Source: an uncultured Gammaproteobacteria bacterium (GTDB taxonomy: Bacteria; Patescibacteriota; Microgenomatia; 2-02-FULL-39-11). Taken from it: a stretch of DNA of 64,000 nt. Position numbers and translations under genes: made by a program. The stretch covers positions 5,169 through 69,168 of the forward strand of contig CAZJBV010000004.1 in assembly GCA_964544585.1 (NCBI GenBank). Reading direction: 5' to 3'. Positions 12,488 to 50,225 of the stretch are shown here, in pieces. Every line of letters starts with the position of its first letter. Position 1 is the stretch's first letter. Under the pieces are notes generated by a model. That model did not search any database. It saw only the letters and a list, made by a program, of their open reading frames with translations, and had not been told where the DNA came from.

Positions 12488-13079
12488 TAATTTTTTCCAA
12501 ATTATACCTCAAAATAATAGAGTCCAACACAGCCTTTTGCACTCGAAACCCAATTCTTTTATAAAAGCCAAAAGCGTCTTTGTTACTTTTTAAAGTATCG
12601 ACATAGAGATATCTCACTCGGAGAATAATATATTGTTTCATTATTTTATTTATCAAACTTTTTCCTACTCCCTTTTTTTGATAGTCATTTGCAACAAAAA
12701 GTGTCAGAATCGTCGCATATGGTTTAGTAAATTTAGTGACCAGAATTTTCTCGAAATGGAATTTACGATATAGCTCTGAAAGAGAAATCTTGCCCAAAAA
12801 AGTCGCCTTTAGTATCAATAAAACTGTTTTAAATGTAATCAGTGTCTTTAAAAAACTCTGCGTTTTATTCAAGTCAACAGTAGAAGTAACAACGCCAACT
12901 ATCTTCCTGTCTACTTCCGCTACATACAAGGCGTGGATATCTTCATGTTTCAATAAAGTAACATAAAGTAACTCGAGGTAGGATTCTCCTATTTTAGATG
13001 ACAATGTATTTGGCAATATCTCCAAATGAAGTCTGACTACATCCTCCAAATCTCGTATCCTAAGCAAACGGATTATCAT
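12480..13079 (-). CDS. GNAT family N-acetyltransferase
   Basis: Motif YQKKGVGKSLI (acetyl-CoA P-loop-like), 199 aa. Confidence 0.55.
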   Translation of the reverse strand: MIIRLLRIRDLEDVVRLHLEILPNTLSSKIGESYLELLYVTLLKHEDIHALYVAEVDRKIVGVVTSTVDLNKTQSFLKTLITFKTVLLILKATFLGKISLSELYRKFHFEKILVTKFTKPYATILTLFVANDYQKKGVGKSLINKIMKQYIILRVRYLYVDTLKSNKDAFGFYKRIGFRVQKAVLDSIILRYNLEKIND

Positions 13080-13822
13080 GGCATCGTACGCAAAATATGT
13101 TTTTCGGTAAGAAGTTGCATCGTCATCATCATATACTTACTTCCTCGCCGAAGATACTGCAATAGATTTTGCCCTGTCTTAGAAATGCCTTTTCTCCGAG
13201 GTAAACAAATATATGGAATTTCTACTATTTTAAATCCGTATGCAAATGATTTATATATAAAATCGATAAAGTATTCACCATAATCGCCTCGTAGCCTTAT
13301 CTTTCGAAAAACATTTTTCCTTACTGCCACAAAACCGCTCGTATAATCTCGAAAATGCCTACCCAATAAAATCTGTATGGAATAATTCATTAACCGACTC
13401 AAGAAAACCGCCAGGAGAGAATCCTTCATTCCTTCAGCCTGCTTCTTAAAAGCCCCGCCTTTCACAAATCTTGATCCGACAGCAATATCAAAACCTTTAT
13501 CTATTTTTTTCAATAACTCATTTATTAAAGATGGTGGCATGGAAAAATCACAATCCATCCAGACAATAATATTTCCTCTGGCAATATCGATTCCTCTTTG
13601 AATACTGTTTGTCAATCCCCTATTTTTTACACGCATCTCCACTAGTACGTTTTTTATTCCATATTTGTTGATATAATTGCCGACAATATTTGCCGTCCCA
13701 TCCGGAGAATTATCATCAACCACAATAATCTCTTTTTTTATTTTCACCATCTTCGTAATTTCTTTAATTAAGGGAATAATATTTTCCGCTTCATTATAAG
13801 TAGGAAGAATGATAGAAATCAT
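13076..13822 (-). CDS. Family 2 glycosyltransferase (polyprenyl-phosphate sugar synthase, DPM1/CsbB-like)
   Basis: MISIILPTYNEAENI ... VVDDNSPDGT ... D-x-D region; 248 aa without TM tail. Confidence 0.8.
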   Translation of the reverse strand: MISIILPTYNEAENIIPLIKEITKMVKIKKEIIVVDDNSPDGTANIVGNYINKYGIKNVLVEMRVKNRGLTNSIQRGIDIARGNIIVWMDCDFSMPPSLINELLKKIDKGFDIAVGSRFVKGGAFKKQAEGMKDSLLAVFLSRLMNYSIQILLGRHFRDYTSGFVAVRKNVFRKIRLRGDYGEYFIDFIYKSFAYGFKIVEIPYICLPRRKGISKTGQNLLQYLRRGSKYMMMTMQLLTEKHILRTMP

Positions 13823-14958
13823 GAAAGTATTTTTTTTATAGCCGCAACTACTGATCTTATTTGTCTTTCTGTAATTGCCAAACCCGACGGTATATAAAAA
13901 CCTCTTCGCGATAAATCATCAGATATAGGACATTTCTCCTTCTTAAAAAATCCCAAATTTCGCAAAATAGGCTGTCTATGCAAGGGTATAAAATAATCTC
14001 TTGTATCTATTCCACTCATTCGCAGTCTATTGCAAAGTTCGTCTCGAGTAATATATAATTTTTTAGTAACACGCGGCGCATACATCCAGTAAACATTTAT
14101 CACTCCCGGCAAAGAGGATGGTAGCTCTAAATTTTCTATATTTTGAAGACCTCTATTATAAAGTTGCGCCATCCAGAGCTTTTTTTTTATATAACTTTCG
14201 ACTTCTTCAAGCTGAGCCAAACCCAATGCTGCCTGTAAATTAGTCATCCTGTAATTAAAACCCAATTCTTCATGGTAAAATCGCCTTTTGGGAGAATGAG
14301 CTAAATCTTTAAGAAGTCTTGCTTTTTTTGCTATGTCTGGATTATTTGTCACAACCATTCCGCCCTCTCCTGTCGTCACAATTTTATTTCCATAAAATGA
14401 AAAACATCCAATATCTCCCAACGATCCCACTTTTTTCCATTCATACATCCTTGCATTCTCCATTTTTTTCATTTGTATTTCCGCTCCGTGCGCCTCTGCC
14501 GCATCCTCAACCACATAAAGATTATGCTTTTTAGCAATTCGGATAATTTCATTCATCTTTGCCGGATGTCCATAAAGATGGACTACCATAATTGCTTTTG
14601 TTTTCCTTGTAATTTTTTCTTCTATTAAATTTGGATCAATATTTCCAGTTGTACTTTCCACATCAACTACAACCGGATTTGCTCCCGTATATAAAACCGC
14701 ATAAGCACAAGATATGATTGTTAGATCAGGAAGTATTACTTCATCGCCTTTTCCAATACCTAAAGAAGCAAGAGCCAAGTGGAGCGCGGCAGTCCCATTT
14801 GTCGTGGAGACTCCATATTTTGTCCCTATATATGAAGAAAATGCTTCTTCAAATTCTCCTATATATTTTCCTGCAGAAGATACCCACCCTGTCTTTATAC
14901 AGTCACTAACATATCTTTGCGCATTTTTACCAATAAGAGGCTCATTTACGGGAATCAT
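13819..14958 (-). CDS. DegT/DnrJ/EryC1 family PLP-dependent sugar aminotransferase (second copy)
   Basis: Blocks TNGTAALHLAL, AIMVVHLYGHPAKM, VVEDAAEAHGAE, GDIGCFSFYGNKIVTTGEGGMVVTNN. Confidence 0.85.
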   Translation of the reverse strand: MIPVNEPLIGKNAQRYVSDCIKTGWVSSAGKYIGEFEEAFSSYIGTKYGVSTTNGTAALHLALASLGIGKGDEVILPDLTIISCAYAVLYTGANPVVVDVESTTGNIDPNLIEEKITRKTKAIMVVHLYGHPAKMNEIIRIAKKHNLYVVEDAAEAHGAEIQMKKMENARMYEWKKVGSLGDIGCFSFYGNKIVTTGEGGMVVTNNPDIAKKARLLKDLAHSPKRRFYHEELGFNYRMTNLQAALGLAQLEEVESYIKKKLWMAQLYNRGLQNIENLELPSSLPGVINVYWMYAPRVTKKLYITRDELCNRLRMSGIDTRDYFIPLHRQPILRNLGFFKKEKCPISDDLSRRGFYIPSGLAITERQIRSVVAAIKKILS

Positions 14959-14970
14959 AATAACTAAAAA

Positions 14971-15399
14971 TTAAGATCGAAAATATATCTTGGCGTGCTC
15001 TGTACCAGGGTAAGGACCCTGTTTTACCTCAAATATCTTTGTATTGGCAAGGACCTTTATTCCATGTCCCTCTTTCATCAGAAGAATGCTATCACCCGTC
15101 TTTAAAATCTTACGTGTTATGGTAAAACCCTCTTTAGTATAAAGAGTTACCAATATTTTACCTTCTTGAATTACTAAAACTTCTTGAATAGTATCTATAT
15201 TTAAAGACTTTTGCATTTTATGTATATGCGGGGAAAGAACGGTACCTTTTTTTCGCTGATGGATACCTATTTGAAAAGGATTAGAAACATCCGTAAAAAA
15301 CTTCACGCCTAATACTTGAATATTTCTTCTCAAAACCAAAGCCACAATCTGCTTTTTATGTCTTACAAACTCTACGCCTTTCATAACATATATATTCAA
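14971..15399 (-). CDS. Small cupin-fold protein (sugar ketoisomerase/epimerase-like, FdtA/RmlC-type candidate)
   Basis: 142 aa. Cupin motif 2-like G-x5-M-K-E-G-H-G-x3-L-x-N and His-rich SPHIHK. Assignment by context. Confidence 0.35.
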   Translation of the reverse strand: MNIYVMKGVEFVRHKKQIVALVLRRNIQVLGVKFFTDVSNPFQIGIHQRKKGTVLSPHIHKMQKSLNIDTIQEVLVIQEGKILVTLYTKEGFTITRKILKTGDSILLMKEGHGIKVLANTKIFEVKQGPYPGTEHAKIYFRS

Positions 15400-16361
15400 A
15401 ACCTATGCCTATATATTAACGGTTCTTTTGACAATTTATCCCAATTTTGATTCACCCACTCCACCACTTCATCGATTCCCTTCTCCAATGTAATTTCTGG
15501 CATCCATCCCAAATGTCTGATTTTACTAGAATCCAAAACATATGCTTTATCCTGCCCCAACCGATCAGAAGCAATATTGGCTGAATTTTTGAATGACACC
15601 CCCATCTTCTCACAAATCATTCTAACCAAATCTCTTATCGAAATACTTCTATCCGGTGAAATATGATATATCTCTCCATCCTTTCCCTTCAAAAGAGCAA
15701 TTAGTTCTCCGTGGCTTACATCTTTTATATGAATATATGACTTAATCGCCCTCCCACCCCCTTCAAGCGGGATTTTTATCTTTTTCTTTATTGAAATAAT
15801 TGTTTTTGGAATAATTCTAAAAGCTTGTTGACCAGGTCCATACACATTTGTTGATCTAATAAAAATAACGGGAAAATTATAATTTTTATTTATGGTCATT
15901 AAATACAAATCTACCGCAGCCTTTGATGCCGCATAAGGAGTACTTGGATTCAATTTAGTATCCTCTTTTGCTCTCCCGATTGTTGTTCCATACACTTCCG
16001 GCGTCGAAATGTGTACATATCTCTTCAAATATTTCTTCTCCTTCAAAAAATTAGCCAATGAAACGATCGCAAAACAATTAGTTTGAAAATAATGTTCGGG
16101 ATAATTCCAGCTTGAGGATACCTCCACCAATCCGGCAAAATTAATTATATACTCCGGCCGAAAATCATCAAAAAGTTCAAATAACTTTTTCCGCTGGGAA
16201 TTAAGGTCAATCTGTGCAAAACGAAAATTTTGATTTTTGATTTTTGATTTTTCTTTCGACCTGCTTACTCCGACCACTTCCCAATCCCCCTCATTTAATA
16301 AAAGATCCACAAAATGACTTCCAGAAAACGAATTACTCCCCAATACAACAATCTTTTTCAT
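15396..16361 (-). CDS. NAD-dependent epimerase/dehydratase (extended SDR; 4,6-dehydratase/reductase-like)
   Basis: Rossmann VVLGSNSFSGSHFVDLLL, YAASKAAVD (YxxxK), 321 aa. Confidence 0.75.
   Translation of the reverse strand: MKKIVVLGSNSFSGSHFVDLLLNEGDWEVVGVSRSKEKSKIKNQNFRFAQIDLNSQRKKLFELFDDFRPEYIINFAGLVEVSSSWNYPEHYFQTNCFAIVSLANFLKEKKYLKRYVHISTPEVYGTTIGRAKEDTKLNPSTPYAASKAAVDLYLMTINKNYNFPVIFIRSTNVYGPGQQAFRIIPKTIISIKKKIKIPLEGGGRAIKSYIHIKDVSHGELIALLKGKDGEIYHISPDRSISIRDLVRMICEKMGVSFKNSANIASDRLGQDKAYVLDSSKIRHLGWMPEITLEKGIDEVVEWVNQNWDKLSKEPLIYRHRF
16232..16252. repeat. (GATTTTT)x3 heptanucleotide repeat inside the SDR CDS
   Basis: Read directly; encodes KSKIKNQN. Confidence 0.8.
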
Positions 16362-17434
16362 TAAAACGGCCCTTTAAATCTTAAATCTGGCACATCCGAC
16401 GGTATTTCTTTCTTTTTTTCGATTTCCGCAGCCAAAATTCTTTTTGCTTTATCGCTTTGTACTCCCATTAAACGTAAAGCTTTCTCTAAAATATCTATAT
16501 GAGTTGGATAATAATATTCTGCCAATTTCCATGAAGTCGGAGTAGGACTATCCGGCAATGTTAGCGTCACCGGCGCCATTTTCAGGCTCGAAAAGGCATT
16601 TTTATACACCCTCGCCAAAATCTCTGAAGCAGTCCCAAAAGAAGAAAATCCTGTATCACAGACGATCAGTCTCCCGGTTTTCTTTATCGATTTTAATAAA
16701 GACTTCTCATCCAAGGGTTTAACCGTCCTTAAATCTATGACTTCTGCCTCAATACCCTCTTTTTTCAAGACATCCGCTACTCTCATACATTCTACTACCA
16801 TATATGATGTACCAACTAACGTGATATCGTTTCCCAATTTCGCTAGTCGTACGCGACCAATGTGCTCGGTATAATATTTCTCAGGCACCGCGCCTTTTAT
16901 CCCATGTAGCCATCTATGTTCTATAAAAATGACAGGATTAGGATCAACGAGAGCTGAAATTAGCATTCCCTTAGCATCAGCAGGAGTCACTGGCATAACC
17001 ACTTTCAGTCCCGGAAAATGCCCATACATCGCCTGTAAACTCTGCGAATGTTGTGCTCCCTGTCCCCATCCTCGCCCCACTATCATTCTTATAACAATTG
17101 GCACACTTTGTATTTCCCCAAACATCGAATACCACTTTGCCGCCACATTGACTATCTGATCTACAGAATATATCGAAAAGTCGACCCTCTGGTGCGTTAG
17201 GAGTGGGCGCAAACCGCGAAGTGCAGCCCCTATGCATACTCCCGTTATTCCACTCTCTGAAACAGGCATATCCATTACCCTTTTTTTGCCATATTTTTTT
17301 TGCAAACCCAATGTCGTCCCAAATATTCCCTTTGGATCAGGCACTCCTTCACCTATCACAAAGATTCTTTTATCTCGTGCCATCGCCTGATCCGTTGCTT
17401 CATAAATTGCTTGAGCGTATGTTATATTTCTCAT
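16361..17434 (-). CDS. Thiamine-diphosphate-dependent 2-oxoacid dehydrogenase E1 component, beta subunit (transketolase C-terminal-like)
   Basis: Strong collinear similarity to PdhB/AcoB: GEGV, PVSESGITGVCIGAALRGLRP, GLKVVMPVTPADAKGML, NPVIFIEH, VIDLRTVKPLD. Confidence 0.8.
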   Translation of the reverse strand: MRNITYAQAIYEATDQAMARDKRIFVIGEGVPDPKGIFGTTLGLQKKYGKKRVMDMPVSESGITGVCIGAALRGLRPLLTHQRVDFSIYSVDQIVNVAAKWYSMFGEIQSVPIVIRMIVGRGWGQGAQHSQSLQAMYGHFPGLKVVMPVTPADAKGMLISALVDPNPVIFIEHRWLHGIKGAVPEKYYTEHIGRVRLAKLGNDITLVGTSYMVVECMRVADVLKKEGIEAEVIDLRTVKPLDEKSLLKSIKKTGRLIVCDTGFSSFGTASEILARVYKNAFSSLKMAPVTLTLPDSPTPTSWKLAEYYYPTHIDILEKALRLMGVQSDKAKRILAAEIEKKKEIPSDVPDLRFKGPF

Positions 17435-18387
17435 GCGTAAACCTTTCTTAACATTTTCTTATCCGGGTACGGACTATTCTTTGCAAATTCAAAGGCTTTT
17501 TCAATCTCTCCTCCTATTTCCTTTTTCATTTCTTCAATTTCCAAAGTAGTTAAAATTTTTTTTTCAAGAATATAGTTAGTAAAAAGTTTAATTGGGTCCT
17601 TTTTTTGCCACAATCTGATTTCTTTCTCTGGCCTATATCCAGGTGGATCATAAAGATGGCCACAGTGCTCCAAATATCTATACGTTGTCAACTCTACAAA
17701 CACCGGCTTTTTTTCTTTTTTTACATAAGCCAAAGCCTTCCCACCCACGTTATAGACCTCCATTACATCATTTCCGTCTCCCGAAAAAGTTTTTATTCCC
17801 ATGCCTTTAGCCCGTGGCCAAATGGAAATGCTTGGCTGCCTATCCAAAATATGAGTCGATATGGAATATAAATTATTCTCGCAAATAAAAAGAATTGGAA
17901 TATTTCTTAAAACTGCAAAATTGACGCTCTCAAAAAATACCCCTTGTTCAGTCGCCGCATCGCCAAAAAAGACGGCTCCTACAGTGTCATTTCCCTTCAA
18001 TGTCTCCGCCCAAACGGCTCCGACTGCCAAAGGTATAGTTTCGGAAACAATAGGAATCGCCCCACAAAAATTAACCGAAAGATCAATCAGGTGTTGCGAC
18101 CCTCCTATCCCCCCACTACAACCAGTTGCCTTTCCATAAAGTTCCGCAACCATCGCCTTAAGGTCTCCACCTTTTGCCAAATAATGGCCATGCGATCTGT
18201 GATAAGAAAAAACAATGTCCTTTTGCCGAAGGTGGAAAGAGATTCCAGTAGCTATTGCTTCTTGTCCTATATACAAATGGGTCGGGCATCTTATTTCCTG
18301 TTTTTTATATTCCTCGGCAATTCCCTCTTCCACCATCCTTATCCTGAGAAGCTGATAAAAAAGTTTTTTAATAATTTTATTTGTCAT
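17431..18387 (-). CDS. Thiamine-diphosphate-dependent dehydrogenase E1 component, alpha subunit
   Basis: E1_dh motifs YRSHGHYLAKG, GGSQH, FFGDAATEQGVFFESVNFA, ICENNLYSIST. It overlaps the beta subunit by 4 nt. Confidence 0.8.
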   Translation of the reverse strand: MTNKIIKKLFYQLLRIRMVEEGIAEEYKKQEIRCPTHLYIGQEAIATGISFHLRQKDIVFSYHRSHGHYLAKGGDLKAMVAELYGKATGCSGGIGGSQHLIDLSVNFCGAIPIVSETIPLAVGAVWAETLKGNDTVGAVFFGDAATEQGVFFESVNFAVLRNIPILFICENNLYSISTHILDRQPSISIWPRAKGMGIKTFSGDGNDVMEVYNVGGKALAYVKKEKKPVFVELTTYRYLEHCGHLYDPPGYRPEKEIRLWQKKDPIKLFTNYILEKKILTTLEIEEMKKEIGGEIEKAFEFAKNSPYPDKKMLRKVYA

Positions 18388-19016
18388 TTAAATGGTACAG
18401 CTCTATTTTTACTTCTCTTTCCTTCATGTTTAACGAGCGAAATCCAAGAAGTCATAATATGGTCAACCACAAGCTGTATGTCCTCACATGGACCATAATG
18501 ACGACTTTTAGTAATAATTGCCTCATCAACCATCTTCCCCAATTTTCCTCCGGTAGTAAACCCCAAAATTCCTACCGTCGTCGCTCGACACTTTTTGGCA
18601 TATTTTATTGCCCGGATTAGATTCGGACTATTTCCTGATCCTGATAGAGCCAAAACCACATCCCCCCTCTCTATCAGATTTCTAAGTTGCTGCACAAAAA
18701 TATCCTCAAACGAAAGATCATTGCCATACGCAGTCAACGTCGCCACATTATCAGTCAGACTATAGACTCTCAAACGCTTTTCTTTCTGATCATAAACTCG
18801 CCTCAATGTTCCTTTGGAAAGATCACACGCCATATGAGACGCAGTTGCTGCACTCCCGCCGTTTCCTATTATAAATACCTTTTTATCTCCTTTATAAGCT
18901 CTTAAAAGTATATTAATTACTTTCTCAATCTGTTTTTTATCAAGACTATCAAGCGTCTTCTTCAATTCTTCTATATACCTGTCAATAAAAGTCACAAGTC
19001 TTAATTTCTTTGGCAT
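18384..19016 (-). CDS. gmhA: SIS-domain sedoheptulose-7-phosphate isomerase (GmhA-like)
   Basis: FIIGNGGSAATASHMACDL and ALSGSGNSPNLIRAIKYAKK match the GmhA signature; 210 aa. Confidence 0.7.
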   Translation of the reverse strand: MPKKLRLVTFIDRYIEELKKTLDSLDKKQIEKVINILLRAYKGDKKVFIIGNGGSAATASHMACDLSKGTLRRVYDQKEKRLRVYSLTDNVATLTAYGNDLSFEDIFVQQLRNLIERGDVVLALSGSGNSPNLIRAIKYAKKCRATTVGILGFTTGGKLGKMVDEAIITKSRHYGPCEDIQLVVDHIMTSWISLVKHEGKRSKNRAVPFK

Positions 19017-19040: not shown

Positions 19041-20027
19041 TTATTGAATTTTTCTATTCTTCATCATCTTCACATTGTAGTATTGTATACTTTCCATTGG
19101 ATTTGGTATCTGCCCTTTTTCATATGCTCTCTTCAAATCCATAATCGCCTCTTCAACCGTATGCTTCGGCTTAAACCCCAATTCTTTATAAATTTTCTTT
19201 GAAGAAATATGATAAGATCTCAAATCGTGAGTCCGAGTAAAAATGATCTTTATCCCGCTATCTCCTATTACCTTTTTTATCATTAAAGCTATTTCTTTGA
19301 GCGTATAATTTTCATATCCAGCATTAAATATTTTTCCCGCAATTTTCTTATCATCATACTCTAGAGTTTTTATATAAAGACCAGTCATATCCTCAATATG
19401 AATATTTGGTCGCTTCTGACTTCCTCCAAAAACTGTAATTTTTTTATTGACCAAAGCCTGCATACTAAGCATATTGACAGTCAGATCAAGTCTAAGCCTC
19501 TTTGAATAACCACACACGGTAGCTGGTCGAAGAACCAAAACTATAAAATCATGGTTTCCCTTTTTCAAAGTATATTCCTCCGACATTGCCTTATATTTCG
19601 AATAATCTGTTAAAGGTTCAAGAGACAACTCTTCGTGAACTTCTTTTTCCTTCTTTATCCCATACACGCTAGACGATGAAGCATAAATAAATCTCTTGAC
19701 TCCAGCATTCTTTGCCAAATCAGTTAGAAGTACAGTTGCATCATAATTTATAGATTTCCCTAAATTTGGGTCAAGCTCAAAACTCGGATCATTGGATATA
19801 CATGCTAAATGAATTACCGCATCGATCCCTTTTAATTCTCTTTGCAAAAGTCTCTTATCCCTTATATCTCCCTTTATCTCTCTTAATTTCCTATGTTTTT
19901 TAAAAACGGTTGGGTTATATAGATACCAATCGATAACCTTCACCTCATACCCTTTTTTCAAGAGTTTTGGCACAAGTACAGCCCCTACATACCCCGCTCC
20001 GCCCGTCACCAACACACGTTTTATCAT
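19041..20027 (-). CDS. NAD-dependent epimerase/dehydratase (extended SDR; heptose 6-epimerase/4-epimerase candidate)
   Basis: VLVTGGAGYVG Rossmann, SSSVYG, YxxxK; 328 aa. Adjacent to GmhA and the HldE-like gene. Confidence 0.7.
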   Translation of the reverse strand: MIKRVLVTGGAGYVGAVLVPKLLKKGYEVKVIDWYLYNPTVFKKHRKLREIKGDIRDKRLLQRELKGIDAVIHLACISNDPSFELDPNLGKSINYDATVLLTDLAKNAGVKRFIYASSSSVYGIKKEKEVHEELSLEPLTDYSKYKAMSEEYTLKKGNHDFIVLVLRPATVCGYSKRLRLDLTVNMLSMQALVNKKITVFGGSQKRPNIHIEDMTGLYIKTLEYDDKKIAGKIFNAGYENYTLKEIALMIKKVIGDSGIKIIFTRTHDLRSYHISSKKIYKELGFKPKHTVEEAIMDLKRAYEKGQIPNPMESIQYYNVKMMKNRKIQ

Positions 20028-20046: not shown

Positions 20047-20099
20047 AAATTTAAAAATTTAAAATTGATTAAAAATTTAAAATTTAAAATTTAAAATTA
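20047..20099. repeat. Intergenic AAAATTT-type heptanucleotide array (3 perfect units at 20072-20092 plus degenerate units)
   Basis: Read directly. It lies between the stop of 20097..21644(-) and the start of 19041..20027(-), in the promoter/5' region of the latter. Confidence 0.8.
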
Positions 20100-21644
20100 T
20101 TTTAACAGTCTATTTATCATAATATGCATATCATCAAATGTAATCGATCTACTATTTCCAATAACCTGTACTTGTAAAGCTCCAGCTATATTTCCCAAAA
20201 AAGAAACCAACTCCACCGGCATCTGGCTGTAAACGCCTGGACTGGTAATCGCAAACAACGCATCCCCGGCTCCGACCCTATCTATCACACGCTGTGTCAA
20301 TGCCGGTGACAGCATGAAACCATCTTTTTCAGTGTAACTTATCGCCCCATTATAGCCTCTTGTTACTATAATTACCTGACACTTCATCTTTTTATATATC
20401 CGCCGAATTAGATCCTCTATATCCCCATATTTATCATGCATCGCCAGTCTCATTTCTTGCTCATCAATACACACATAATGCGCCCGTGGATATTTCGTAA
20501 TTACATTAAATCCATAGTTTGCGCTGTTTGCCTGGACATTCAATGCAATGTACTTTCCGTATTTGCAAATAGTTTTAACCAAAGCTTCGGTCAAAAATCC
20601 ATGTCCAAAATCATTAACAATAACCATGTCATACTTTAGTAATTCCTGTTTGAGTAATTTCTTTATACTCCGCTCTAATTTTCCTTCAATCTCATCATCA
20701 TCGATATAGCTTACCTGGAAAAGTTTCTGCTTCGTGTCAATATCCACGAATCGCCTCTTGATAACTGTATGCGTGCCTGATCTTATAAAAAAAGTATGAC
20801 GAATGGGCCTTTTTAGCCTCTTTTCTATAAATGATTGAAAAGAATTTTTCTCTCCCAAAAGACTAATAAGACTAATACGCTTTGATAATGACACCACATG
20901 ATTTGCAGTGGCGAGAGCCCCCCCCAAGTATGATTCTTCTGATAAAAATTTGTTGACAATCACAGGTTCTTTAGAAGATTTCCCCACCGGTTTAGAATAG
21001 TGATACTGATCAATGATCGCATCACCTATGATAAGTATTTTTATATCCTCCAATTTCCGCATCCAGTCAACCACATCGTCAGTAGTATAGTCACGCCTCA
21101 AATTCTCTAAATATCGCCTCGTGCGAGCGGGATAGACATCGATATATGAATTAATAAGTTTGGTCGAGGAAAAAACAATATCATCGGTAAACTCGAGCTT
21201 ACCCCCCACTTTTTTGACCGCCTCCTCTTCTTCCAGAAGCCTTTTATATATGGAAGTATCCTTCCTTATTCCTCTATAATCCGGGCCTTTCAGGTATACA
21301 TCAGGTTTAATAGCCATTATTGCCGCCACCGCGCTCTCTGACCTATCTATAGAAACATAATCAACAAAAGATATAGAAGATAAAAACTCTGCCCGGAGTC
21401 TCTCATGAAAAATAGGTCTTCCCGGACCTTTTTTGACAAAAACATCAGCCGTGATCGTCACAACGACTATATCTCCCCTTTTTTTCGCCTCCTCAAAATA
21501 GCGGATATGCCCCGGATGAATAAGATCAAATACTCCATGACAATGTATTATCTTTTTTCCCTCCTTTTTCAACCTGGATATTATTTTAGATAAATCCGAA
21601 ATTCTTTTTACCTTTTTTCTTGGATTGATTTCCATGTGTGGCAA
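20097..21644 (-). CDS. Bifunctional heptose-phosphate kinase / nucleotidyltransferase, HldE(RfaE)-like but with reversed domain order (N-terminal cytidylyltransferase-like, C-terminal PfkB kinase)
   Basis: N-terminus HCHGVFDLIHPGHIRYFEEAKKRGDIVVVTITAD matches HldE domain II (GVFDILHAGH...AVNSD). C-terminus IKILIIGDAIIDQY...GGALATANHV...VIDRVGAGDALFA matches the ribokinase-like domain I. Confidence 0.7.
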   Translation of the reverse strand: MPHMEINPRKKVKRISDLSKIISRLKKEGKKIIHCHGVFDLIHPGHIRYFEEAKKRGDIVVVTITADVFVKKGPGRPIFHERLRAEFLSSISFVDYVSIDRSESAVAAIMAIKPDVYLKGPDYRGIRKDTSIYKRLLEEEEAVKKVGGKLEFTDDIVFSSTKLINSYIDVYPARTRRYLENLRRDYTTDDVVDWMRKLEDIKILIIGDAIIDQYHYSKPVGKSSKEPVIVNKFLSEESYLGGALATANHVVSLSKRISLISLLGEKNSFQSFIEKRLKRPIRHTFFIRSGTHTVIKRRFVDIDTKQKLFQVSYIDDDEIEGKLERSIKKLLKQELLKYDMVIVNDFGHGFLTEALVKTICKYGKYIALNVQANSANYGFNVITKYPRAHYVCIDEQEMRLAMHDKYGDIEDLIRRIYKKMKCQVIIVTRGYNGAISYTEKDGFMLSPALTQRVIDRVGAGDALFAITSPGVYSQMPVELVSFLGNIAGALQVQVIGNSRSITFDDMHIMINRLLK

Positions 21645-21747: not shown

Positions 21748-22059
21748 ATGGATGTGATTGATGATGTTACAGAATTTGAATGGGATAAAGGAAATAAAGA
21801 TAAAAACTGGATAAAACATAAAGTACGCCAAGAAGAAGCAGAACAAGCTTTCTTTGATAAAAATAAAGTAATATCAGATAACCTATCGCGCTCACAAAAG
21901 GAGAAAAGATATATTTTACTAGGCAAGACAAAAGAAGAAAGACTTTTATATATTGTCTGTACTGTAAGAAAACAAAAAATTAGAGTTATTTCTGCTCGAG
22001 ATATAAATAAAAAGGAGGTAAAATTATATGAAAAAACCACTAAAAATACCAAAATTTAA
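21748..22059 (+). CDS. brnT: BrnT-family (DUF497) type II toxin
   Basis: FEWDKGNKDKNWIKHKV...EAEQAF...RYILLGKT...RLLYIVCTVR..IRVISARD matches the BrnT consensus. Confidence 0.65.
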   Translation: MDVIDDVTEFEWDKGNKDKNWIKHKVRQEEAEQAFFDKNKVISDNLSRSQKEKRYILLGKTKEERLLYIVCTVRKQKIRVISARDINKKEVKLYEKTTKNTKI

Positions 22060-22294
22060 AACAGAGGACGAGGAAAGGGATTTCTGGGCTCGGCTTGATT
22101 TAGCGGAATACTTTGAGCCTGCTGATTTCCATAGAGTTTCATTTCCCAACCTAAAACCAACTACCAGACCTATCTCCATAAGACTTCCAGAGTATTTAAT
22201 AAATATGGTCAAAGAAAAAGCCAACGAACTCTCTATCCCCTATCAAAGCCTGATTAAACAATACATTAAAAAAGGAGTAATGTCAGAATTATAA
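22028..22294 (+). CDS. brnA: BrnA-type (CopG/RHH-like) antitoxin
   Basis: RPISIRLPEYLINMVKEKANELSIPYQSLIKQYIKKGV matches the BrnA C-terminus. Preceded by an AGGAGG Shine-Dalgarno. Confidence 0.6.
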   Translation: MKKPLKIPKFKTEDEERDFWARLDLAEYFEPADFHRVSFPNLKPTTRPISIRLPEYLINMVKEKANELSIPYQSLIKQYIKKGVMSEL

Positions 22295-22300
22295 TTTACT

Positions 22301-23284
22301 TTAGGTTAGATACCTAAACCACTCCCTTGTTTCTTTTCTTATTTTTTTTGGAGTCCATACAGGAGCTTTTTTCCAATAATCAATATTTTCCAGCATAATT
22401 TTTACCCCCTCCGCAAAAATCACTTTCGGTCTCCAACCTAAGGCTTTCTGAATTTTTCTAATATCCGCTTGTGTTTTATCCGGTTCTCCAGGTCGCTTGG
22501 GTATATACGTCACTTTTCCACCTAAAAGCTTAACCAATGTATTTACACTCTGAGGCTTTCCAGTTCCCACATTAAAAACTTCTCCACTCACTTTGGATTC
22601 CACAGCTTTTATAAATGCATCTATAACATCAGTCACAAAAGTAAAATCTCGAACTTGGGTCCCATCTCCTACTACAGTAAAAGGACAACCAGCAAGCTTT
22701 TGCGCCAAAAAAACTCCAAACACGGCCCCATATGTACCTGATGTCCTCGATCGCGGCCCATATACATTAAAAAGCCTCAACGAAATAAGCGGAAGTTTAT
22801 ATATATGCGCCCAGGAAAGAGCATAAATTTCTCCAGCATATTTTGTCAGTGCATAAGGATATCGAGGATCGATTTCTGCCACTTCACTGGTCGGATATGT
22901 TTTGGGAATTCCATAACAAGACGATGATGCAGTATAAATAAATCTTTTTATTCCTGCCTGTCTCGCTGCCTCAAGTACATTAAACGTTCCATCCACATTA
23001 GCCCGATGATAATCCAATGGCCTTATTATCGAAGGTACAATGTCGGCTAGGGCCGCCAAATGAAAAACCCAATCTACTTTCTGAAAATATTTGTCGAGTT
23101 TCTCAACATTTTTTGAAATATCTACTCGGAAAAAGCTTAATTTGTCACTTTTAATATATGAAAGATTCTCTCTTCTTCCAGTTGCCAGATTATCCAAGAC
23201 AATTACACTATGACCATCCCTAATAAGACGCTCAACCAAATGGCTTCCTATAAATCCCGCTCCTCCGGTAACAAGTGTTTTCAT
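22301..23284 (-). CDS. NAD-dependent epimerase/dehydratase (UDP-glucuronate decarboxylase/4-epimerase-like)
   Basis: LVTGGAGFIGSHLVERL, ASSSSCYG, YALTKYAGE; 327 aa. Confidence 0.8.
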   Translation of the reverse strand: MKTLVTGGAGFIGSHLVERLIRDGHSVIVLDNLATGRRENLSYIKSDKLSFFRVDISKNVEKLDKYFQKVDWVFHLAALADIVPSIIRPLDYHRANVDGTFNVLEAARQAGIKRFIYTASSSCYGIPKTYPTSEVAEIDPRYPYALTKYAGEIYALSWAHIYKLPLISLRLFNVYGPRSRTSGTYGAVFGVFLAQKLAGCPFTVVGDGTQVRDFTFVTDVIDAFIKAVESKVSGEVFNVGTGKPQSVNTLVKLLGGKVTYIPKRPGEPDKTQADIRKIQKALGWRPKVIFAEGVKIMLENIDYWKKAPVWTPKKIRKETREWFRYLT

Positions 23285-24855
23285 AATTTTAATTCATATA
23301 AACTAATGTTTTCTCTCTCATAAATCTTTTTAATAAACGTATATTTCTCAAAACCTCCTCCACCAGCCGCTAAAATATGGCTTATATTGTTTTTCTGTAT
23401 TAAATCTTTTGCTTCAACTTCTGTTAAAACTCCATCCAATATTTGTAAAGCTTCTTGCGTTTTTTTATTCCCATCTATTGTCATATGAGAAATGGGGTCT
23501 CCATAATATACCCTTCTCCCCGTTATAGCCGGAAATGACTCATTATATGGCCATCTGACAAGAAAAATACTTTCGGCAGATGTATTTTTCTTTGCAAAAT
23601 GATACGTTTCATAAACATCTTTTGGTAGATAAATTAGTCCCCTATCATTAGTCTTTGCTACAAGATCATCTTCAAGTTGTCCTAAATAAGATGCTGCTGT
23701 CAAAGATGCATAAATTAAAATAATTGTTATTATCACCCATACTCTCCATTTTTTAAAAAATGATGAGATAAAAATTATTCCCTCAGTCGCCACTGCGGCA
23801 ATGAAAATATAAATAGCTTGGGGCCAAAATCGCACATTCATAATTCCCAATGAAAAATGTAATTTACTTACAAATAGGGTAAAACAAATAATGATAAATA
23901 TTAGACCAAATATTCTTTCATGCTTTAGACTCTTTATAAATGGAAAAATACCTAAAATAGCAAATAAAGACACGGGCCCGTTCGCATAAAAGAACGAAAT
24001 AAAGTCCATTGGTAGCCTCTGATAAGATTCCCAAGTTAAAATAGTACTGTAGGGGATAGTTTTATATATTTCCTGGATATAAAAAGCCGGAAATACTCCA
24101 CCGAAAAAGTATACAACAAGTGGCACAAACAACTTAAATCCCCCCCGAATACCTGCAATTAATCCCGCTCCCAAAACTAGCACCCAGAAAATAGGACTAA
24201 TACTAGCTAAAAGAAAACCAGAAAGACTAAGTAATAATAGATGCCTTTTATATAAAATACGCAATCGACCTATTATTAACAAATAAAAAAAGAAAGAAAA
24301 GGCAAGAAGTGCGCTTGCCAAAAGATGATTCGGAGTAGGCCCAAATCTCGAGAAAAAATTTCCCGTGTTATACCAGAAGTAATGATACCCAAAATCTAAA
24401 CCTTGCTTTGATATTTCCACAATTGGCCATGCGGTAGAAGAGGCAAATAAAAAGAATGATAAAATTCTCTTCAATCTGGAATCAGGAAAAATAAGCCGAA
24501 GAACTAAATAGGATGCAATAAAAAATAATATCCTAAAAAGAAATACTCCTACATGATAAATACCAATCGGTCCAAAGCCAAATTTTGTCAGTATAAAGCC
24601 AAGAAGTACAAATTCCCATCTAGATAAATTTTTAGGCACATTTTCTGCCGTATACAAAAGTGCAGAAGACAAAATATTATTTTCTCCTTGTACAATCCAC
24701 GATATATAATTGAAATAGTCAGGCGCATAATGAATAGTCCCCAGGTAGATATTCCCAGGCTGTGTCCGTATCCAGTCGGCAATAAATCCTAGAGTTAACA
24801 GAAAAACGCAAGCAGTAGTTATTCCCAAAATCGAAATCCATTCCCTTTTGTTCAT
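23281..24855 (-). CDS. Member of 7-copy paralogous ~540-aa polytopic membrane protein family (putative GT-C glycosyltransferase)
   Basis: Shares the N-terminal loop pattern H-x-(A/N)-x-D-(Y/F)-x-x-Y-x-S-x-x-Q-G-E and the C-terminal Y-x-G pattern with the other six copies. Confidence 0.45.
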   Translation of the reverse strand: MNKREWISILGITTACVFLLTLGFIADWIRTQPGNIYLGTIHYAPDYFNYISWIVQGENNILSSALLYTAENVPKNLSRWEFVLLGFILTKFGFGPIGIYHVGVFLFRILFFIASYLVLRLIFPDSRLKRILSFFLFASSTAWPIVEISKQGLDFGYHYFWYNTGNFFSRFGPTPNHLLASALLAFSFFFYLLIIGRLRILYKRHLLLLSLSGFLLASISPIFWVLVLGAGLIAGIRGGFKLFVPLVVYFFGGVFPAFYIQEIYKTIPYSTILTWESYQRLPMDFISFFYANGPVSLFAILGIFPFIKSLKHERIFGLIFIIICFTLFVSKLHFSLGIMNVRFWPQAIYIFIAAVATEGIIFISSFFKKWRVWVIITIILIYASLTAASYLGQLEDDLVAKTNDRGLIYLPKDVYETYHFAKKNTSAESIFLVRWPYNESFPAITGRRVYYGDPISHMTIDGNKKTQEALQILDGVLTEVEAKDLIQKNNISHILAAGGGGFEKYTFIKKIYERENISLYELKL

Positions 24856-25757
24856 ACGAGCACTCTATTTATACCCTCGGCAAGAGATATTTTTGGCTTC
24901 CAACCAGTATAGTTAAATATTTTTGATATATCCGCAAGAGTTAAATGTGGCTCCTTTTCAATCATCGGAACATATTTAATTTTACCGCCAAGAAGCTTGG
25001 TGAGTTCGTTCATGCTGTATGCTTTTCCATTTCCAATATTAAAAACTTCTCCCGTATATTTTGCATAAGCCAAATATAAAAATGCATCATAAACATCATC
25101 TACATATGTAAAATCTCTTTTCTGCCTTCCATCCCCTCGTATTGTCAGTGGCTTTCCCTCTCGTAATTGATTTATAAAAATTGAAAGCGTCGGACCATAA
25201 TATCCTGATATCCTATTTTTAAACCCATATACGTTAAAAAGCCGGGTTATAACAACTGGAAGCTTATATACCCTGAAATAATGGAGGCAATATTTCTCTC
25301 CAATATATTTCGTCACAGAGTATGGATAATCCAGACTAATCTTGGCACTTTCAGGAGTCGGATATAGTAAAGGCGTACCATAGACAGACGCAGTTGAAAC
25401 GTAAATAAACTTCTTTATATTCATTTGCCTGGCTAACTCCAAAACATTGACCGTCCCATTGACATTGACTAAGTGATATCCCACCGGATCAAGTTTTGAA
25501 ACCGCATTACCAATTTTTGCCGCAAGATGAAAAACCCAATCTACTTCTCCAATACTTTTTTTGTTTAAATTAGAAGCATTCGAAATATCAGCTTTAATGA
25601 GAGTTAATTTATCTTTATATTTCTTGTTTGCATTCAAATGTTCTTCCAACCCCAGCCGAAATTTGTCTATTCCAATTACAGTATGCCCATCTACAAGCAG
25701 CCTATCTATAAAATGGCTTCCAATAAACCCCGCCGCCCCAGTAACCAAAACTTTCAT
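24852..25757 (-). CDS. NAD-dependent epimerase/dehydratase
   Basis: VLVTGAAGFIGSHFIDRL, STASVYG, YSVTKYIGE; 301 aa. Confidence 0.75.
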   Translation of the reverse strand: MKVLVTGAAGFIGSHFIDRLLVDGHTVIGIDKFRLGLEEHLNANKKYKDKLTLIKADISNASNLNKKSIGEVDWVFHLAAKIGNAVSKLDPVGYHLVNVNGTVNVLELARQMNIKKFIYVSTASVYGTPLLYPTPESAKISLDYPYSVTKYIGEKYCLHYFRVYKLPVVITRLFNVYGFKNRISGYYGPTLSIFINQLREGKPLTIRGDGRQKRDFTYVDDVYDAFLYLAYAKYTGEVFNIGNGKAYSMNELTKLLGGKIKYVPMIEKEPHLTLADISKIFNYTGWKPKISLAEGINRVLV

Positions 25758-25760
25758 AAG

Positions 25761-26279
25761 TTATGTGTACAGCTTCTTAAATATCATAAACAAGCTGTGA
25801 TGCAATCGAAATATAGAAAATCTATTAACCAAGTTATAAATATCTCCCTGTACTTTTACCTCTCCACTTTTTAAAAGTCTTTTCAGGCGTTCATCAACAA
25901 TCATTCTCTCATTATATTTTTCAATGATTGATTTTTTGTTTATTCCATTACTACCCGCAATATATATTTCCCTCAAAATCCTCACTCTCAAAGAAGCAAC
26001 CATCATCCCAAAAAAACCCAATATATAAGACGCCGCCAGTAAGTTGAAAAGAATAAAACTTATTAGAAGTAAAACAAAATAAACTCCAATCGTTTGGTTT
26101 AAGAGAAATAAAAATATTGAAATAAAGATTAAAGAAATTATGTTGCCACCGACAAAAGTGAATAAAAGACCTCTAATTACACTATGTTTATCAATGCTTC
26201 GAAAAACTAAAAAATGAATAAATACAAATAAAAAAAGCGATATAAAAGAAGCAAATATAACAGCAAAATCCACTTTCAA
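25761..26279 (-). CDS. Small membrane protein (3-4 TM) with C-terminal winged-helix-like soluble tail
   Basis: 172 aa. It has the same architecture as its neighbour 26276..26788. Function unknown (GtrA-like flippase or membrane-tethered regulator are guesses). Confidence 0.3.
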   Translation of the reverse strand: MKVDFAVIFASFISLFLFVFIHFLVFRSIDKHSVIRGLLFTFVGGNIISLIFISIFLFLLNQTIGVYFVLLLISFILFNLLAASYILGFFGMMVASLRVRILREIYIAGSNGINKKSIIEKYNERMIVDERLKRLLKSGEVKVQGDIYNLVNRFSIFRLHHSLFMIFKKLYT

Positions 26280-26788
26280 CCTCCTTTATTCCATCTAAAA
26301 AAATTCCTATACTTTTCAAATATAAACATAATTAATCTACCTCTATTGGTTATAATATAAACTCCACTTTTTTCAATTACCATTCCCGCATCAATCAAGT
26401 TCCTGAGCCTTATATGAACAAGCGATGCATCCGAAAAATAAGAAATTATCTGCTCATAAGACTTTGCTCCACCCTCAAGATGATAAAAAATACGCGATGA
26501 AGGGCTATCCTCCCCAAGATAGGCATTGGCAAAATATAAAAAGTATAAAAAAGACAAAAGGGCATAAATTAAACTTGCCGTGATTGGTAACGAGACATTC
26601 CACCAAGAGATAGATGTGATTTTAGTTGAAAGGTAAAGCAATAAGAGTAATGTTGCTATAAATCCAAAACCCAAAATATAAATGCTTCGATAAGTTTTAA
26701 CTCCGTAAGATAAAAGAAATCGATGAAGAAAAATGTGTCCTATTACACTCAATAGGAAAAAAAATAAACTTAATAAAACATATATCAT
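26276..26788 (-). CDS. Small membrane protein (3-4 TM) with C-terminal winged-helix-like soluble tail (paralog of 25761..26279)
   Basis: 170 aa; C-terminal LVHIRLRNLIDAGMVIEKSGVYIITNRG. Confidence 0.3.
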   Translation of the reverse strand: MIYVLLSLFFFLLSVIGHIFLHRFLLSYGVKTYRSIYILGFGFIATLLLLLYLSTKITSISWWNVSLPITASLIYALLSFLYFLYFANAYLGEDSPSSRIFYHLEGGAKSYEQIISYFSDASLVHIRLRNLIDAGMVIEKSGVYIITNRGRLIMFIFEKYRNFFRWNKGG

Positions 26789-26800
26789 GGAATTATAAAA

Positions 26801-27517
26801 TTAAGAAAAATATACTCTCCTATATAAGGATATAGTATTTCCTAAAGCTTGCAAAACGCCTCTTACTGTTAAAATTTTAGAAGACCCATGCTGTCGCGGG
26901 GTATGCTCAAATGGTATCTCTTTAATCGTCGCATTTTTTTTTAGAAGTAATACCTTTATCTCACCTAATATTGCAATACTTTCCGAGGCAAGCCTTAGAT
27001 TCTTAATAAGTTTTGTTTTACAAACAAAATAACCGGTGAAATAATGCAATCTTAAACCAAAAAGAAGATTCATCAAAAGTACATAACTTCTAGAGGCAAT
27101 ACGCCGGAAAAATGTCCTAGCAGATGGATTACTCATATAAGACGAAATAATATCAGTATTCCTCGCCTCCTTCATCAAGAAAAGAAGCGATTTCCAAGAC
27201 ATATCATTATCTCCAGGAAATCCTCCAAAGTATTCTTTTGATGCCTTTCTGATTCCTCTTCTAAACGCATATCCAAATCCTTTATTCACCTCATTATGCA
27301 AAACAATTATATGTGTGTCTTTCTTTGCCAGGTCTTCCATTATTCTCCCCGTAGAGTCATCGCTTCCATCATCAACTAAAATTACCTCATAGTTACTAGT
27401 CACATTCTCACAGGCTTTTTGCACACTTTCCCAAGCATCCTTAATATTTTTCTCTTCATTATATGCACAGACTACAATCGAAAAACTCATGTATAAAACT
27501 CTCTTATCTTTTTGCAC
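26801..27517 (-). CDS. Family 2 glycosyltransferase (polyprenyl-phosphate sugar synthase, GtrB/DPM1-like catalytic domain)
   Basis: FSIVVCAYNEEKNI...VILVDDGSDDST... Confidence 0.8.
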   Translation of the reverse strand: MQKDKRVLYMSFSIVVCAYNEEKNIKDAWESVQKACENVTSNYEVILVDDGSDDSTGRIMEDLAKKDTHIIVLHNEVNKGFGYAFRRGIRKASKEYFGGFPGDNDMSWKSLLFLMKEARNTDIISSYMSNPSARTFFRRIASRSYVLLMNLLFGLRLHYFTGYFVCKTKLIKNLRLASESIAILGEIKVLLLKKNATIKEIPFEHTPRQHGSSKILTVRGVLQALGNTISLYRRVYFS

Positions 27518-28707: not shown

Positions 28708-28968
28708 ATGAATTATTTACAAAGCACTCTAAGCCGCAAATATCAGACCGTTATCCCTTCTCAGATTCGAAGACTCCTCCAGTTAAAAGCAGGAGATACT
28801 ATCATCTGGCAAATTACTCAATATAAAAATCAAACCCAAGCCATTGCTTCTCCCAAACCCCAAAAATGGACAGAGTATACACGCGGGCTCGGAAAAAGTA
28901 TCTGGAAAGATGTCAATATAGAAGACTATATAAGGAAGCTACGTTCCGAATGGCAAAACCGCGACTAA
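28708..28968 (+). CDS. AbrB/MazE(SpoVT_AbrB)-fold antitoxin
   Basis: KYQTVIPSQIRRLLQLKAGDTI swapped-hairpin motif; 86 aa. It overlaps the downstream PIN gene. Confidence 0.5.
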   Translation: MNYLQSTLSRKYQTVIPSQIRRLLQLKAGDTIIWQITQYKNQTQAIASPKPQKWTEYTRGLGKSIWKDVNIEDYIRKLRSEWQNRD

Positions 28969-29414
28969 ACAAATTCCAAAAGGATCTTCTCACGTACGGG
29001 AATATTGGTGTTGACTCGATGATTTTCATCTATCATTTTGCCGATCATCCTCAATACGCACCGCTTACAAATATTTTTTTTGATGCTCTCGAAAATAATA
29101 AAATAACGGCGGTTACATCAATAATATCCCTTATCGAAATACTTATAAAACCGGAAAGAGAGAAGGAATTAGCCTTAGTAGAAGAGTATGAAAAAATACT
29201 CTATAATTTCCCAAATCTGGAAATACTACCAATAGATGAATCTGTAGCCAGGCTTGGAGCAAAACTGCGAGGACACTATTCCTTTCTCAAGACTCCAGAC
29301 GCCATTCAGTTAAGCGTCGCACTTCTGAAAGACTGCAAAGCATTTCTCACCAATGATGAAAAACTCAAGAGAATAAAAGAAATTCATACCATTGTCCTCC
29401 AAAACTACCTCTAA
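28950..29414 (+). CDS. PIN-domain (VapC-like) toxin
   Basis: IGVDSMIFIY (N-terminal catalytic Asp), LTNDEKL (C-terminal D). The start is trimmed to Met29 of the track ORF. Confidence 0.55.
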   Translation: MAKPRLNKFQKDLLTYGNIGVDSMIFIYHFADHPQYAPLTNIFFDALENNKITAVTSIISLIEILIKPEREKELALVEEYEKILYNFPNLEILPIDESVARLGAKLRGHYSFLKTPDAIQLSVALLKDCKAFLTNDEKLKRIKEIHTIVLQNYL

Positions 29415-38047: not shown

Positions 38048-38086
38048 GAGATTGACTTATAATTCATAAAATTATAGCATCTCCTC

Positions 38087-50190: not shown

Positions 50191-50225
50191 AGAAGTATTA
50201 TAATTGCGAGTATATCATCCACAGC

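Follow-up and report, generated by a model that had tools for sequence, protein, structure and literature searches.

The question raised by this locus is what a bacterium of the Candidate Phyla Radiation (CPR), a Candidatus Gottesmanbacteria, might make with a protein that joins a nucleotidyltransferase to a sugar kinase in the order opposite to that of the heptose-activating enzyme HldE. The gene, termed FUS here (a label that covers both this NTase-first, kinase-second fusion gene and its relatives), lies in a stretch of 64,000 nucleotides of contig CAZJBV010000004.1 (assembly GCA_964544585.1), which was analyzed over its whole length of 64 kb and is called the window below. Throughout, NTase denotes a cytidylyltransferase-like nucleotidyltransferase and PfkB a ribokinase-type sugar kinase domain. 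Judged from sequence comparisons, FUS is rather probably the bifunctional enzyme of a nucleoside diphosphate (NDP)-heptose-type pathway, in a lineage paralogous to HldE.

FUS is a single intact open reading frame (ORF) on the minus strand at 20097-21644, with 515 codons counted from a TTG at 21644 and a stop codon at 20097-20099. An ATG at 21635, three codons inside the frame, gives a protein of 512 amino acids (aa), and an identical database protein (P0001, 512 aa) begins at this same ATG; a weak promoter-like match, in consensus only, ends 9 nt 5' of it. The frame is uninterrupted, and both peptides quoted in the initial annotation of this DNA were found in it. The gene and its parts are:

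20097-21635, minus strand: FUS, bifunctional NTase then kinase (ORF, identity to P0001, domain searches and AlphaFold2, AF2, model)
21153-21584, minus strand: N-terminal NTase domain, ~aa 18-161 (PF01467, TIGR02199)
21060-21152, minus strand: helical linker between the domains, ~aa 162-192 (family alignment, AF2 model)
20130-21059, minus strand: C-terminal PfkB kinase domain, ~aa 193-502 (PF00294, TIGR02198)

Pfam searches located PF01467 (CTP_transf_like) at aa 36-126 (E 2.9e-14, 53.9 against a gathering threshold of 21) and PF00294 (PfkB) at aa 202-499 (E 3.2e-16, 60 against a gathering threshold of 25.8), while NCBIfam placed rfaE_dom_II at aa 21-164 and rfaE_dom_I at aa 196-505. In BLASTP alignments with E. 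coli HldE (reference sequence taken from NC_000913.3), FUS aa 14-121 aligned with HldE 327-436 (33% identity, E 9e-18) and FUS aa 192-495 with HldE 5-301 (22% identity, E 1.6e-15). The swapped coordinates therefore reveal a reversed domain order in FUS. Pfam, NCBIfam and BLASTP thus agree that the NTase precedes the PfkB kinase, opposite to HldE, as the initial annotation had proposed, and the canonical kinase-first order was not recovered with PF01467 and PF00294. The NTase domain carries CHGVFDLIHPGH (HxGH), KKGPGRP, KGPDY and VFSSTK, so that HPGH and FSST are both present in it. The kinase domain carries a GG dipeptide (LGGAL), DFGHG, the catalytic VGAGDA and a family-specific NVQANSANYGFNVITKY loop, and the NxxE motif of PfkB kinases appears as DexE. 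Between them, the AF2 model (mean pLDDT 82) forms linker helices at 170-182 and 185-197, and the linker consensus in the family alignment is VYPP.T.KYLE...KKY, with P169, T172, L176 and Y183 invariant.

Each domain of FUS is specifically closest to its counterpart among the heptose kinases and heptose nucleotidyltransferases. In NCBIfam, the kinase domain scored 130 bits against rfaE_dom_I (TIGR02198), the next kinase family reaching 34, and the NTase domain scored 101 bits against rfaE_dom_II (TIGR02199), followed by glycerol-3-P cytidylyltransferase at 42. In support of these assignments, the top Foldseek match of the FUS model was B. cenocepacia HldA (E 1e-20, TM 0.77-0.81), with other PfkB kinases at 3.5e-16 or weaker, about four orders of magnitude behind HldA, and the best sequence matches in the PDB were 3glv, HldC (5x9q) and HldA (4e84). 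Among 69 full-length relatives, HxGH is conserved in 66, GAGD in 67 and aromatic-SS(S/T) in 65.

FUS is not an isolated fusion, since it belongs to a large lineage that is already present in public databases but unstudied. A word-indexed protein search returned 4,173 matches, the best 120 of which are ~510 aa long and 50-100% identical to FUS, and PF01467 is followed by PF00294 in all 120. An exhaustive search of 1.84 billion cluster representatives yielded 1,388 at E<=1e-30, and the best 150 of them (32-53% identity) are all collinear with FUS. Because canonical HldE may contribute some of the 1,388 near the E 1e-30 boundary, we put the family at 150 to ~1,400 clusters (50% identity). More than 592 stretches encoding relatives came from a metagenome scan, and the same NTase-then-kinase order is seen in 64 of the 69 full-length locus copies. 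A frameshift or a chimeric assembly was ruled out by the common order in the 120 best matches and the 150 best representatives. Source names among the relatives include Gottesmanbacteria, Aureabacteria and Patescibacteria, and full-length members lie on plasmids of the cultured Solidesulfovibrio carbinolicus DSM 3852 and Azospirillum oryzae KACC 14407. Database annotations of the relatives read 'rfaE bifunctional protein', 'cytidyltransferase' or 'PfkB family carbohydrate kinase', and by score cut-offs no curated NCBIfam model claims the family. A phage and plasmid search found no NTase-first fusion in phages, and literature searches on the NTase-first architecture, on heptose in CPR bacteria and on clusters of heptose and transketolase genes returned nothing relevant.

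Variants of the NTase were also encountered. In three fused copies (L057:9986-12030, L060:3031-4554 and L086:806-1756) the NTase is degenerate and KGPGRP is lost; directly upstream of the degenerate copy in L057 lies an intact, free-standing NTase of the FUS lineage. These sequences suggest a duplication, then decay of the fused NTase. A P. aeruginosa plasmid (NZ_CP147627.1, L097:2980-3462) encodes a stand-alone NTase of the FUS clade (WP_078451656.1) in a cluster with a class-III aminotransferase, a GNAT protein, a short-chain dehydrogenase/reductase (SDR) and a GH65 protein, without a kinase or SIS gene.

The gene neighborhood bears on what FUS might act upon. As noted in the initial annotation, a GmhA-like gene and an SDR adjoin FUS, and they are part of a longer run of genes that includes a two-subunit thiamine-diphosphate (ThDP) enzyme:

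22301-23284, minus strand: upstream SDR (SDRx), conserved partner (PF01370, E 6e-62)
19041-20027, minus strand: SDR (SDRa), epimerase/dehydratase family, directly downstream of FUS (PF01370, E 8e-40)
18384-19016, minus strand: SIS-domain GmhA-like sugar-phosphate isomerase (SIS_2, E 1.6e-18)
17431-18387, minus strand: ThDP enzyme, subunit like the alpha subunit of pyruvate dehydrogenase (PDH) E1 (E1_dh, E 5e-69)
16361-17434, minus strand: ThDP enzyme, beta-like subunit (Transket_pyr and Transketolase_C, E 4e-31 each)
15396-16361, minus strand: 4,6-dehydratase-like SDR (Pfam/NCBIfam)
14971-15399, minus strand: WbuC-type cupin (Pfam/NCBIfam)
13819-14958, minus strand: LegC/DegT aminotransferase (Pfam/NCBIfam)
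13076-13822, minus strand: GT2 (Pfam/NCBIfam)
12480-13079, minus strand: GNAT (Pfam/NCBIfam)

The SIS gene matched phosphoheptose isomerase models best in NCBIfam (92-97 bits, below cut-off), and the SIS proteins keep the GmhA residues H61, D94, S119, S121, S124 and H180, with E65 changed to D and Q172 to E. For SDRa, the best NCBIfam match was GalE (116 bits, below its cut-off); with only 23.6 bits against E. coli HldD, it was rejected as an HldD. Conservation of this context was assessed in the 26 loci whose flanks extend 4 kb or more on either side of FUS, where neighbors were counted within 10 kb by phmmer at E<1e-5. An SDR is found near FUS in 24 of these loci, a ThDP-enzyme beta subunit in 20, a GmhA-like SIS gene in 18, a DegT aminotransferase in nine and an APH-family kinase in seven. 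SDRx precedes FUS in most loci, and the order of the tailoring and transfer genes at 12480-16361 recurs in L002 and, in part, in L006 and A. oryzae. The A. oryzae cassette, whose fusion protein is WP_149200362.1, reads SDR-SDR-FUS-SIS-SDR-E1a-E1b-AT-AT (AT, aminotransferase), while FUS of S. carbinolicus resides within a pseudaminic-acid-type glycosylation island with radical-SAM genes.

The ThDP pair is E1-like in the window, in L002, in L006 and in A. oryzae, and both E1-like subunits of the window fall below the PDH equivalog cut-offs. Elsewhere, the pair is a split transketolase-like enzyme, often preceded by an APH-family kinase. Examples of two-subunit ThDP enzymes in related loci are L005:15045-17059 and L092:5713-7481. 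These transketolase-like partners keep all ThDP and catalytic residues; S385 is lost, and in 18 of 20 H461 is replaced by G and D469 by L (E. coli TktA numbering). These changes alter the acceptor site, including phosphate-binding residues of TktA. Because H461 and D469 are replaced and S385 is lost, the partners are unlikely to be mere suppliers of sedoheptulose 7-phosphate, and a housekeeping role of this kind was judged unlikely for the linked transketolases.

Natural fusions provide a further link between the activities. One patescibacterial protein (P0122, TAL20625.1) combines a GmhB-like HAD domain with NTase and PfkB domains, a second protein (P0195) combines NTase, PfkB and a GmhA-like SIS domain, and fusions of an NTase with a GmhB-like HAD domain lie beside FUS at L006:7883-8959 and L081:5282-6373. 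In L068, the gene directly upstream of FUS passes GmhB cut-offs (186 vs 149.6 and 180 vs 178). By their domain content, these fusions tie all four activities of an NDP-heptose pathway together. A match of a GmhB profile to FUS itself was discarded as spurious, the profile being contaminated by NTase-HAD fusions.

Taken together, these data are compatible with a four-step route. The adjacent GmhA-like isomerase would convert sedoheptulose 7-phosphate to heptose 7-phosphate, and the C-terminal PfkB domain would then phosphorylate the anomeric O-1, like HldA and HldE domain I. A GmhB-type phosphatase, presumably encoded elsewhere in the genome, would take off the 7-phosphate, and the N-terminal HxGH NTase would finally join heptose 1-phosphate and a nucleoside triphosphate to give NDP-heptose. 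Since the fused activities would be the second and fourth steps, which are not consecutive, no obvious mechanistic constraint on the domain order would follow. The neighboring SDRs, ThDP enzyme, cupin, aminotransferase and acetyltransferase could tailor the NDP-heptose, and the GT2 and GT-C transferases of the 64 kb glycan island could put the tailored sugar into a surface glycan. The substrates, the nucleotide, the order of the steps and the fate of the product are all inferred from sequence. The Rho protein encoded in the window is 100% identical to a Candidatus Gottesmanbacteria Rho, which places the host among CPR bacteria. As these bacteria are without lipopolysaccharide (LPS), an LPS core is probably not the destination of the product, which more likely enters a surface glycan. 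FUS is the sole nucleotidyltransferase among all ORFs of at least 110 aa in the island.

Several observations weigh against an NDP-heptose pathway of this kind. FUS lies below the curated cut-offs (NF008454, 160 vs 521; TIGR02198, 130 vs 345; TIGR02199, 101 vs 181.5), its kinase domain shares only 20-22% identity with canonical HldE, and a near-invariant, family-specific kinase loop stands where HldE has DPKGTDFERY (76 kinase domains aligned). According to two commentaries, heptose nucleotidyltransferases (HENases) share a conserved (F/L)xxGxSTT motif (PMC11573728, PMC11461863). This motif occurs in none of the 69 family members; the aligned segment reads D-I-V-F-S-S-T-K. For BpHldC, the heptose-1-P motifs TNG, NSD, KG, EXTP as well as KGG were predicted by docking (PMC7993394). 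Relative to these predictions, which have no complex structure behind them, KG is kept in the family and KGG becomes KGP; CHG invariably takes the place of TNG, T(A/G)D stands instead of NSD, and no EXTP is left. In agreement with the initial annotation, no GmhB or other HAD phosphatase was detected in the window, where E. coli GmhB as a phmmer --max query reached a best E of 2, a strict HAD motif regular expression had no match over the window, and a GmhB-like phosphatase gene is present in only five of the 26 loci. Searches for WaaC/WaaF found none in the window and one marginal match (E 5e-4) in 89 related loci, and no GT9 heptosyltransferase or HldD-like gene was found near FUS. Finally, we know of no counterpart, in any known heptose pathway, to the linkage of FUS with ThDP enzymes whose acceptor sites are remodeled.

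The missing gmhB is weak evidence, because gmhB, gmhA and hldE are mutually unlinked in E. coli too. Canonical loci used for comparison are arranged as GmhA-HldE-GT9-HAD in Sagittula and as rfaD-hldE-SIS-HAD in A. brasilense. The partners of FUS are SDRs, ThDP enzymes and aminotransferases, not HldD or GT9, and a different downstream pathway is therefore indicated. The nucleotide-heptose pathway that had been deemed plausible at the outset is thus favored by the GmhA-like linkage, by GmhB in some loci and by the fusions, but its setting is not that of LPS synthesis.

Because every curated HldE/rfaE cut-off failed and the published NTase motif is absent, we place FUS in an HldE-like paralogous lineage and not with HldE itself. 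Per-domain trees were built by neighbor joining with 100 bootstraps, from a small sample of four HldE and two HldC and without an outgroup. In the NTase tree, canonical HldE, HldC and phage NTases split from the family NTases in 99/100 bootstraps, and in the kinase tree the canonical and family kinase domains split in 100/100. The separate phylogenies thus gave distinct family clades for both domains, and stand-alone NTases and NTase-HAD fusions nest inside the family NTase clade. On these comparisons, the lineage appears paralogous and not orthologous to HldE. The label HldE-like given in the initial annotation consequently holds insofar as both domains are nearest to heptose enzymes, but FUS fails all HldE/rfaE cut-offs and is without the published motif. 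The independent, convergent fusion suggested there fits the separate clades of both domains, but the fit falls short of proof, as an old permutation would also agree with them; the reversed order may have originated by an ancient permutation through duplication and deletion.

Phages carry related enzymes of another kind. Cyanophages encode a short, canonical-type heptose NTase beside a 'cytidyltransferase-related protein' (Synechococcus phage Sf-CH8, L098:1986-3117, and related phages), and in phage S-CAM1 a canonical-type heptose NTase lies beside a carbamoyltransferase. The cyanophage NTase groups with canonical HldC and not with the FUS family.

Could the fusion be something other than the enzyme of an NDP-heptose-type pathway? 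An artefactual fusion, or a pairing of domains with unrelated reactions such as a CDP-polyol cytidylyltransferase and an unrelated sugar kinase, is scarcely credible. Although the NTase domain is also weakly similar to glycerol-3-P, ethanolamine-P and choline-P cytidylyltransferases and to the Fom1 CyTase domain, both domains are nearest to the two heptose enzymes, the order is shared by the 150 best cluster representatives and by nearly all of the full-length locus copies, the linker is conserved, and some family members are fused to GmhA or GmhB domains. A genuine HldE that works in the ADP-heptose route and merely has its domains swapped, which is the narrow reading of the initial annotation, is unlikely. 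The nearest hidden Markov models (HMMs) and structures are indeed those of ADP-heptose enzymes, and GmhA-like and sometimes GmhB genes adjoin, but all equivalog cut-offs failed, the adenine-stacking Phe/STT motif is not conserved, and both domains fall in clades apart from canonical HldE/HldC. Neither GT9 nor HldD is nearby, and the host has no LPS to build. Moreover, L081 carries, besides FUS, a canonical HldC that passes TIGR02199 at 198.

Two further readings alter the chemistry of the route. The same logic could operate on a different ketose phosphate, e.g. an octulose phosphate or a different heptulose that the linked ThDP enzyme would assemble, which would parallel the lincosamide octose route (LmbR/LmbN/LmbP/LmbK/LmbO), and we regard this as a minor possibility. 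It would account for the two-subunit ThDP enzyme linked in 20 of 26 loci, for transketolase-type partners that keep all catalytic residues yet are altered at the acceptor site, for the family-specific kinase loop and for the systematic E65 to D and Q172 to E changes in the GmhA-like proteins. However, the E1-type partners sit amid genes for dehydratases and aminotransferases, suggesting a late tailoring role, a sugar-phosphate acceptor is disfavored by the changes at phosphate-binding residues in the transketolase-like enzymes, and the GmhB beside FUS in L068 scores above the cut-off for a heptose-bisphosphate phosphatase. Very improbable, in our view, is a phosphatase-free route, in which the NTase would act on the 1,7-bisphosphate to give NDP-heptose 7-phosphate or the kinase would use an unphosphorylated sugar. 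The lack of GmhB in the window and in ~80% of loci, as well as the altered sugar-binding motifs of the NTase, would be in line with it, but the E. coli arrangement means that absence from the locus says little, and the GmhB fusions and neighbors in the family point to a phosphatase step.

Returning to the NDP-heptose-type pathway, its wider implications may be considered. In commentaries (PMC11573728, PMC11461863) on the work of Tang et al. (Science 2024), three HENase architectures are described, namely the mono-domain NTase, kinase/NTase and isomerase/kinase/NTase, and promiscuity among ADP, CDP and UDP is known within the HENase superfamily. It is possible, and we propose it only tentatively, that the NTase-first fusion constitutes a fourth architecture of heptose-activating enzymes and opens a widespread, uncharacterised pathway. 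Such a pathway might involve a nucleotide-activated heptose, possibly CDP- or UDP- and not ADP-linked, followed by ThDP-dependent C-C bond formation by E1-like or transketolase-like enzymes with a rebuilt acceptor pocket and by SDR, aminotransferase and sometimes radical-SAM steps. It might lead to an amino sugar, branched or extended in its chain, that would be part of glycans or glycoproteins on the surface of CPR bacteria and of some Proteobacteria and Desulfovibrionia.

The remainder of the window provides the surroundings of this locus. Positions 1-59012 are almost wholly a glycan island, with four DegT aminotransferases, six SDRs, six GT2, two GNATs and several GT-C-type membrane proteins (PMT_2, YfhO, and Alg6/Alg8-like fused to NPCBM); about a dozen of its ORFs, of 400-630 aa, are without a Pfam match, e.g. 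those in 32328-39562 and 46948-54188. Upstream of FUS, the minus-strand cassette at 22301-27517 encodes a GT2, two small Pfam-less membrane proteins, an SDR, a 524-aa polytopic membrane protein and an SDR, and it occurs in the same order in L002, L005 and L006. By analogy, this cassette could represent a polyprenyl-phosphate-sugar modification module (ArnC/ArnT logic). A BrnT toxin and CopG (BrnA) antitoxin pair (Pfam) is inserted on the plus strand at 21748-22294, between SDRx and FUS; L002, L005 and L006, which are syntenic, lack the pair there. Between two glycan-gene blocks, a PIN-domain protein at 28866-29414 (plus strand) may be a toxin-antitoxin remnant. The GC skew is negative in every 2-kb bin of 1-64000 (-0.12 to -0.34), independent of the coding strand; an unusual strand composition disparity in a Microgenomates genome is reportedly the subject of a paper (PMC7143001), to go by its title.

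Bacteria use NDP-heptoses as building blocks for their surfaces, and heptose linked to ADP, CDP or UDP acts as a potent agonist of ALPK1, a human innate immune receptor. The catalogue of enzymes that make them therefore bears on predicting which microbes produce ALPK1 agonists. The FUS family escapes both the published motif and the curated HMM cut-offs. Surveys built on these would overlook hundreds of sequence clusters, many of them from CPR bacteria, about whose cell envelopes hardly anything is known. The ThDP linkage with altered acceptor sites further suggests a sugar chemistry without characterised precedent. Since A. oryzae KACC 14407 and S. carbinolicus DSM 3852, both of them cultured, carry the cassette, the question is directly testable.

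Tailored higher-sugar pathways include the GDP-6-deoxy-heptoses of Campylobacter and Yersinia, the ADP-heptose-derived sugars of septacidin and hygromycin B, and the lincosamide octose, and ThDP enzymes are precedented in sugar branching by E1-like two-carbon branching enzymes, AviB1/AviB2. To our knowledge, none of these pathways contains an NTase-first PfkB fusion or has a split transketolase-like or E1-like pair alongside. The FUS locus would share with them a nucleotide-activated higher sugar and its subsequent tailoring by SDRs, aminotransferases and acyltransferases.

Compared with HldE, FUS likewise holds the PfkB kinase and HxGH NTase folds in one polypeptide with their catalytic motifs retained, and its family is linked to a GmhA-type isomerase and in some loci to GmhB. 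It differs in the reversed order, in the low identity (33% for the NTase, 20-22% for the kinase) and scores far below the cut-offs, in the replacement of the FEDGCSTT of HldE by (I/V)(F/Y)SS(S/T)K and of TNG by CHG in the family, in its own kinase loop and separate clade for each domain, and in the absence of both a GT9/HldD context and LPS in its host. Burkholderia HldA (4e84) is the best structural match of FUS and HldC (5x9q) is among its best sequence matches; as with these single-domain enzymes, stand-alone NTases of the FUS family exist (L057, L007 and the P. aeruginosa plasmid), but they group with the fusion family and not with HldC, and the docking-predicted substrate motifs of HldC are only partly conserved. 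With the HENases, as the commentaries describe them (PMC11573728, PMC11461863), FUS would share the enzyme superfamily and the four-step pathway logic, though its family is without their defining (F/L)xxGxSTT motif; its NTase/kinase order, together with the GmhB-NTase-kinase, NTase-kinase-GmhA and NTase-GmhB variants, lies outside the three architectures described there.

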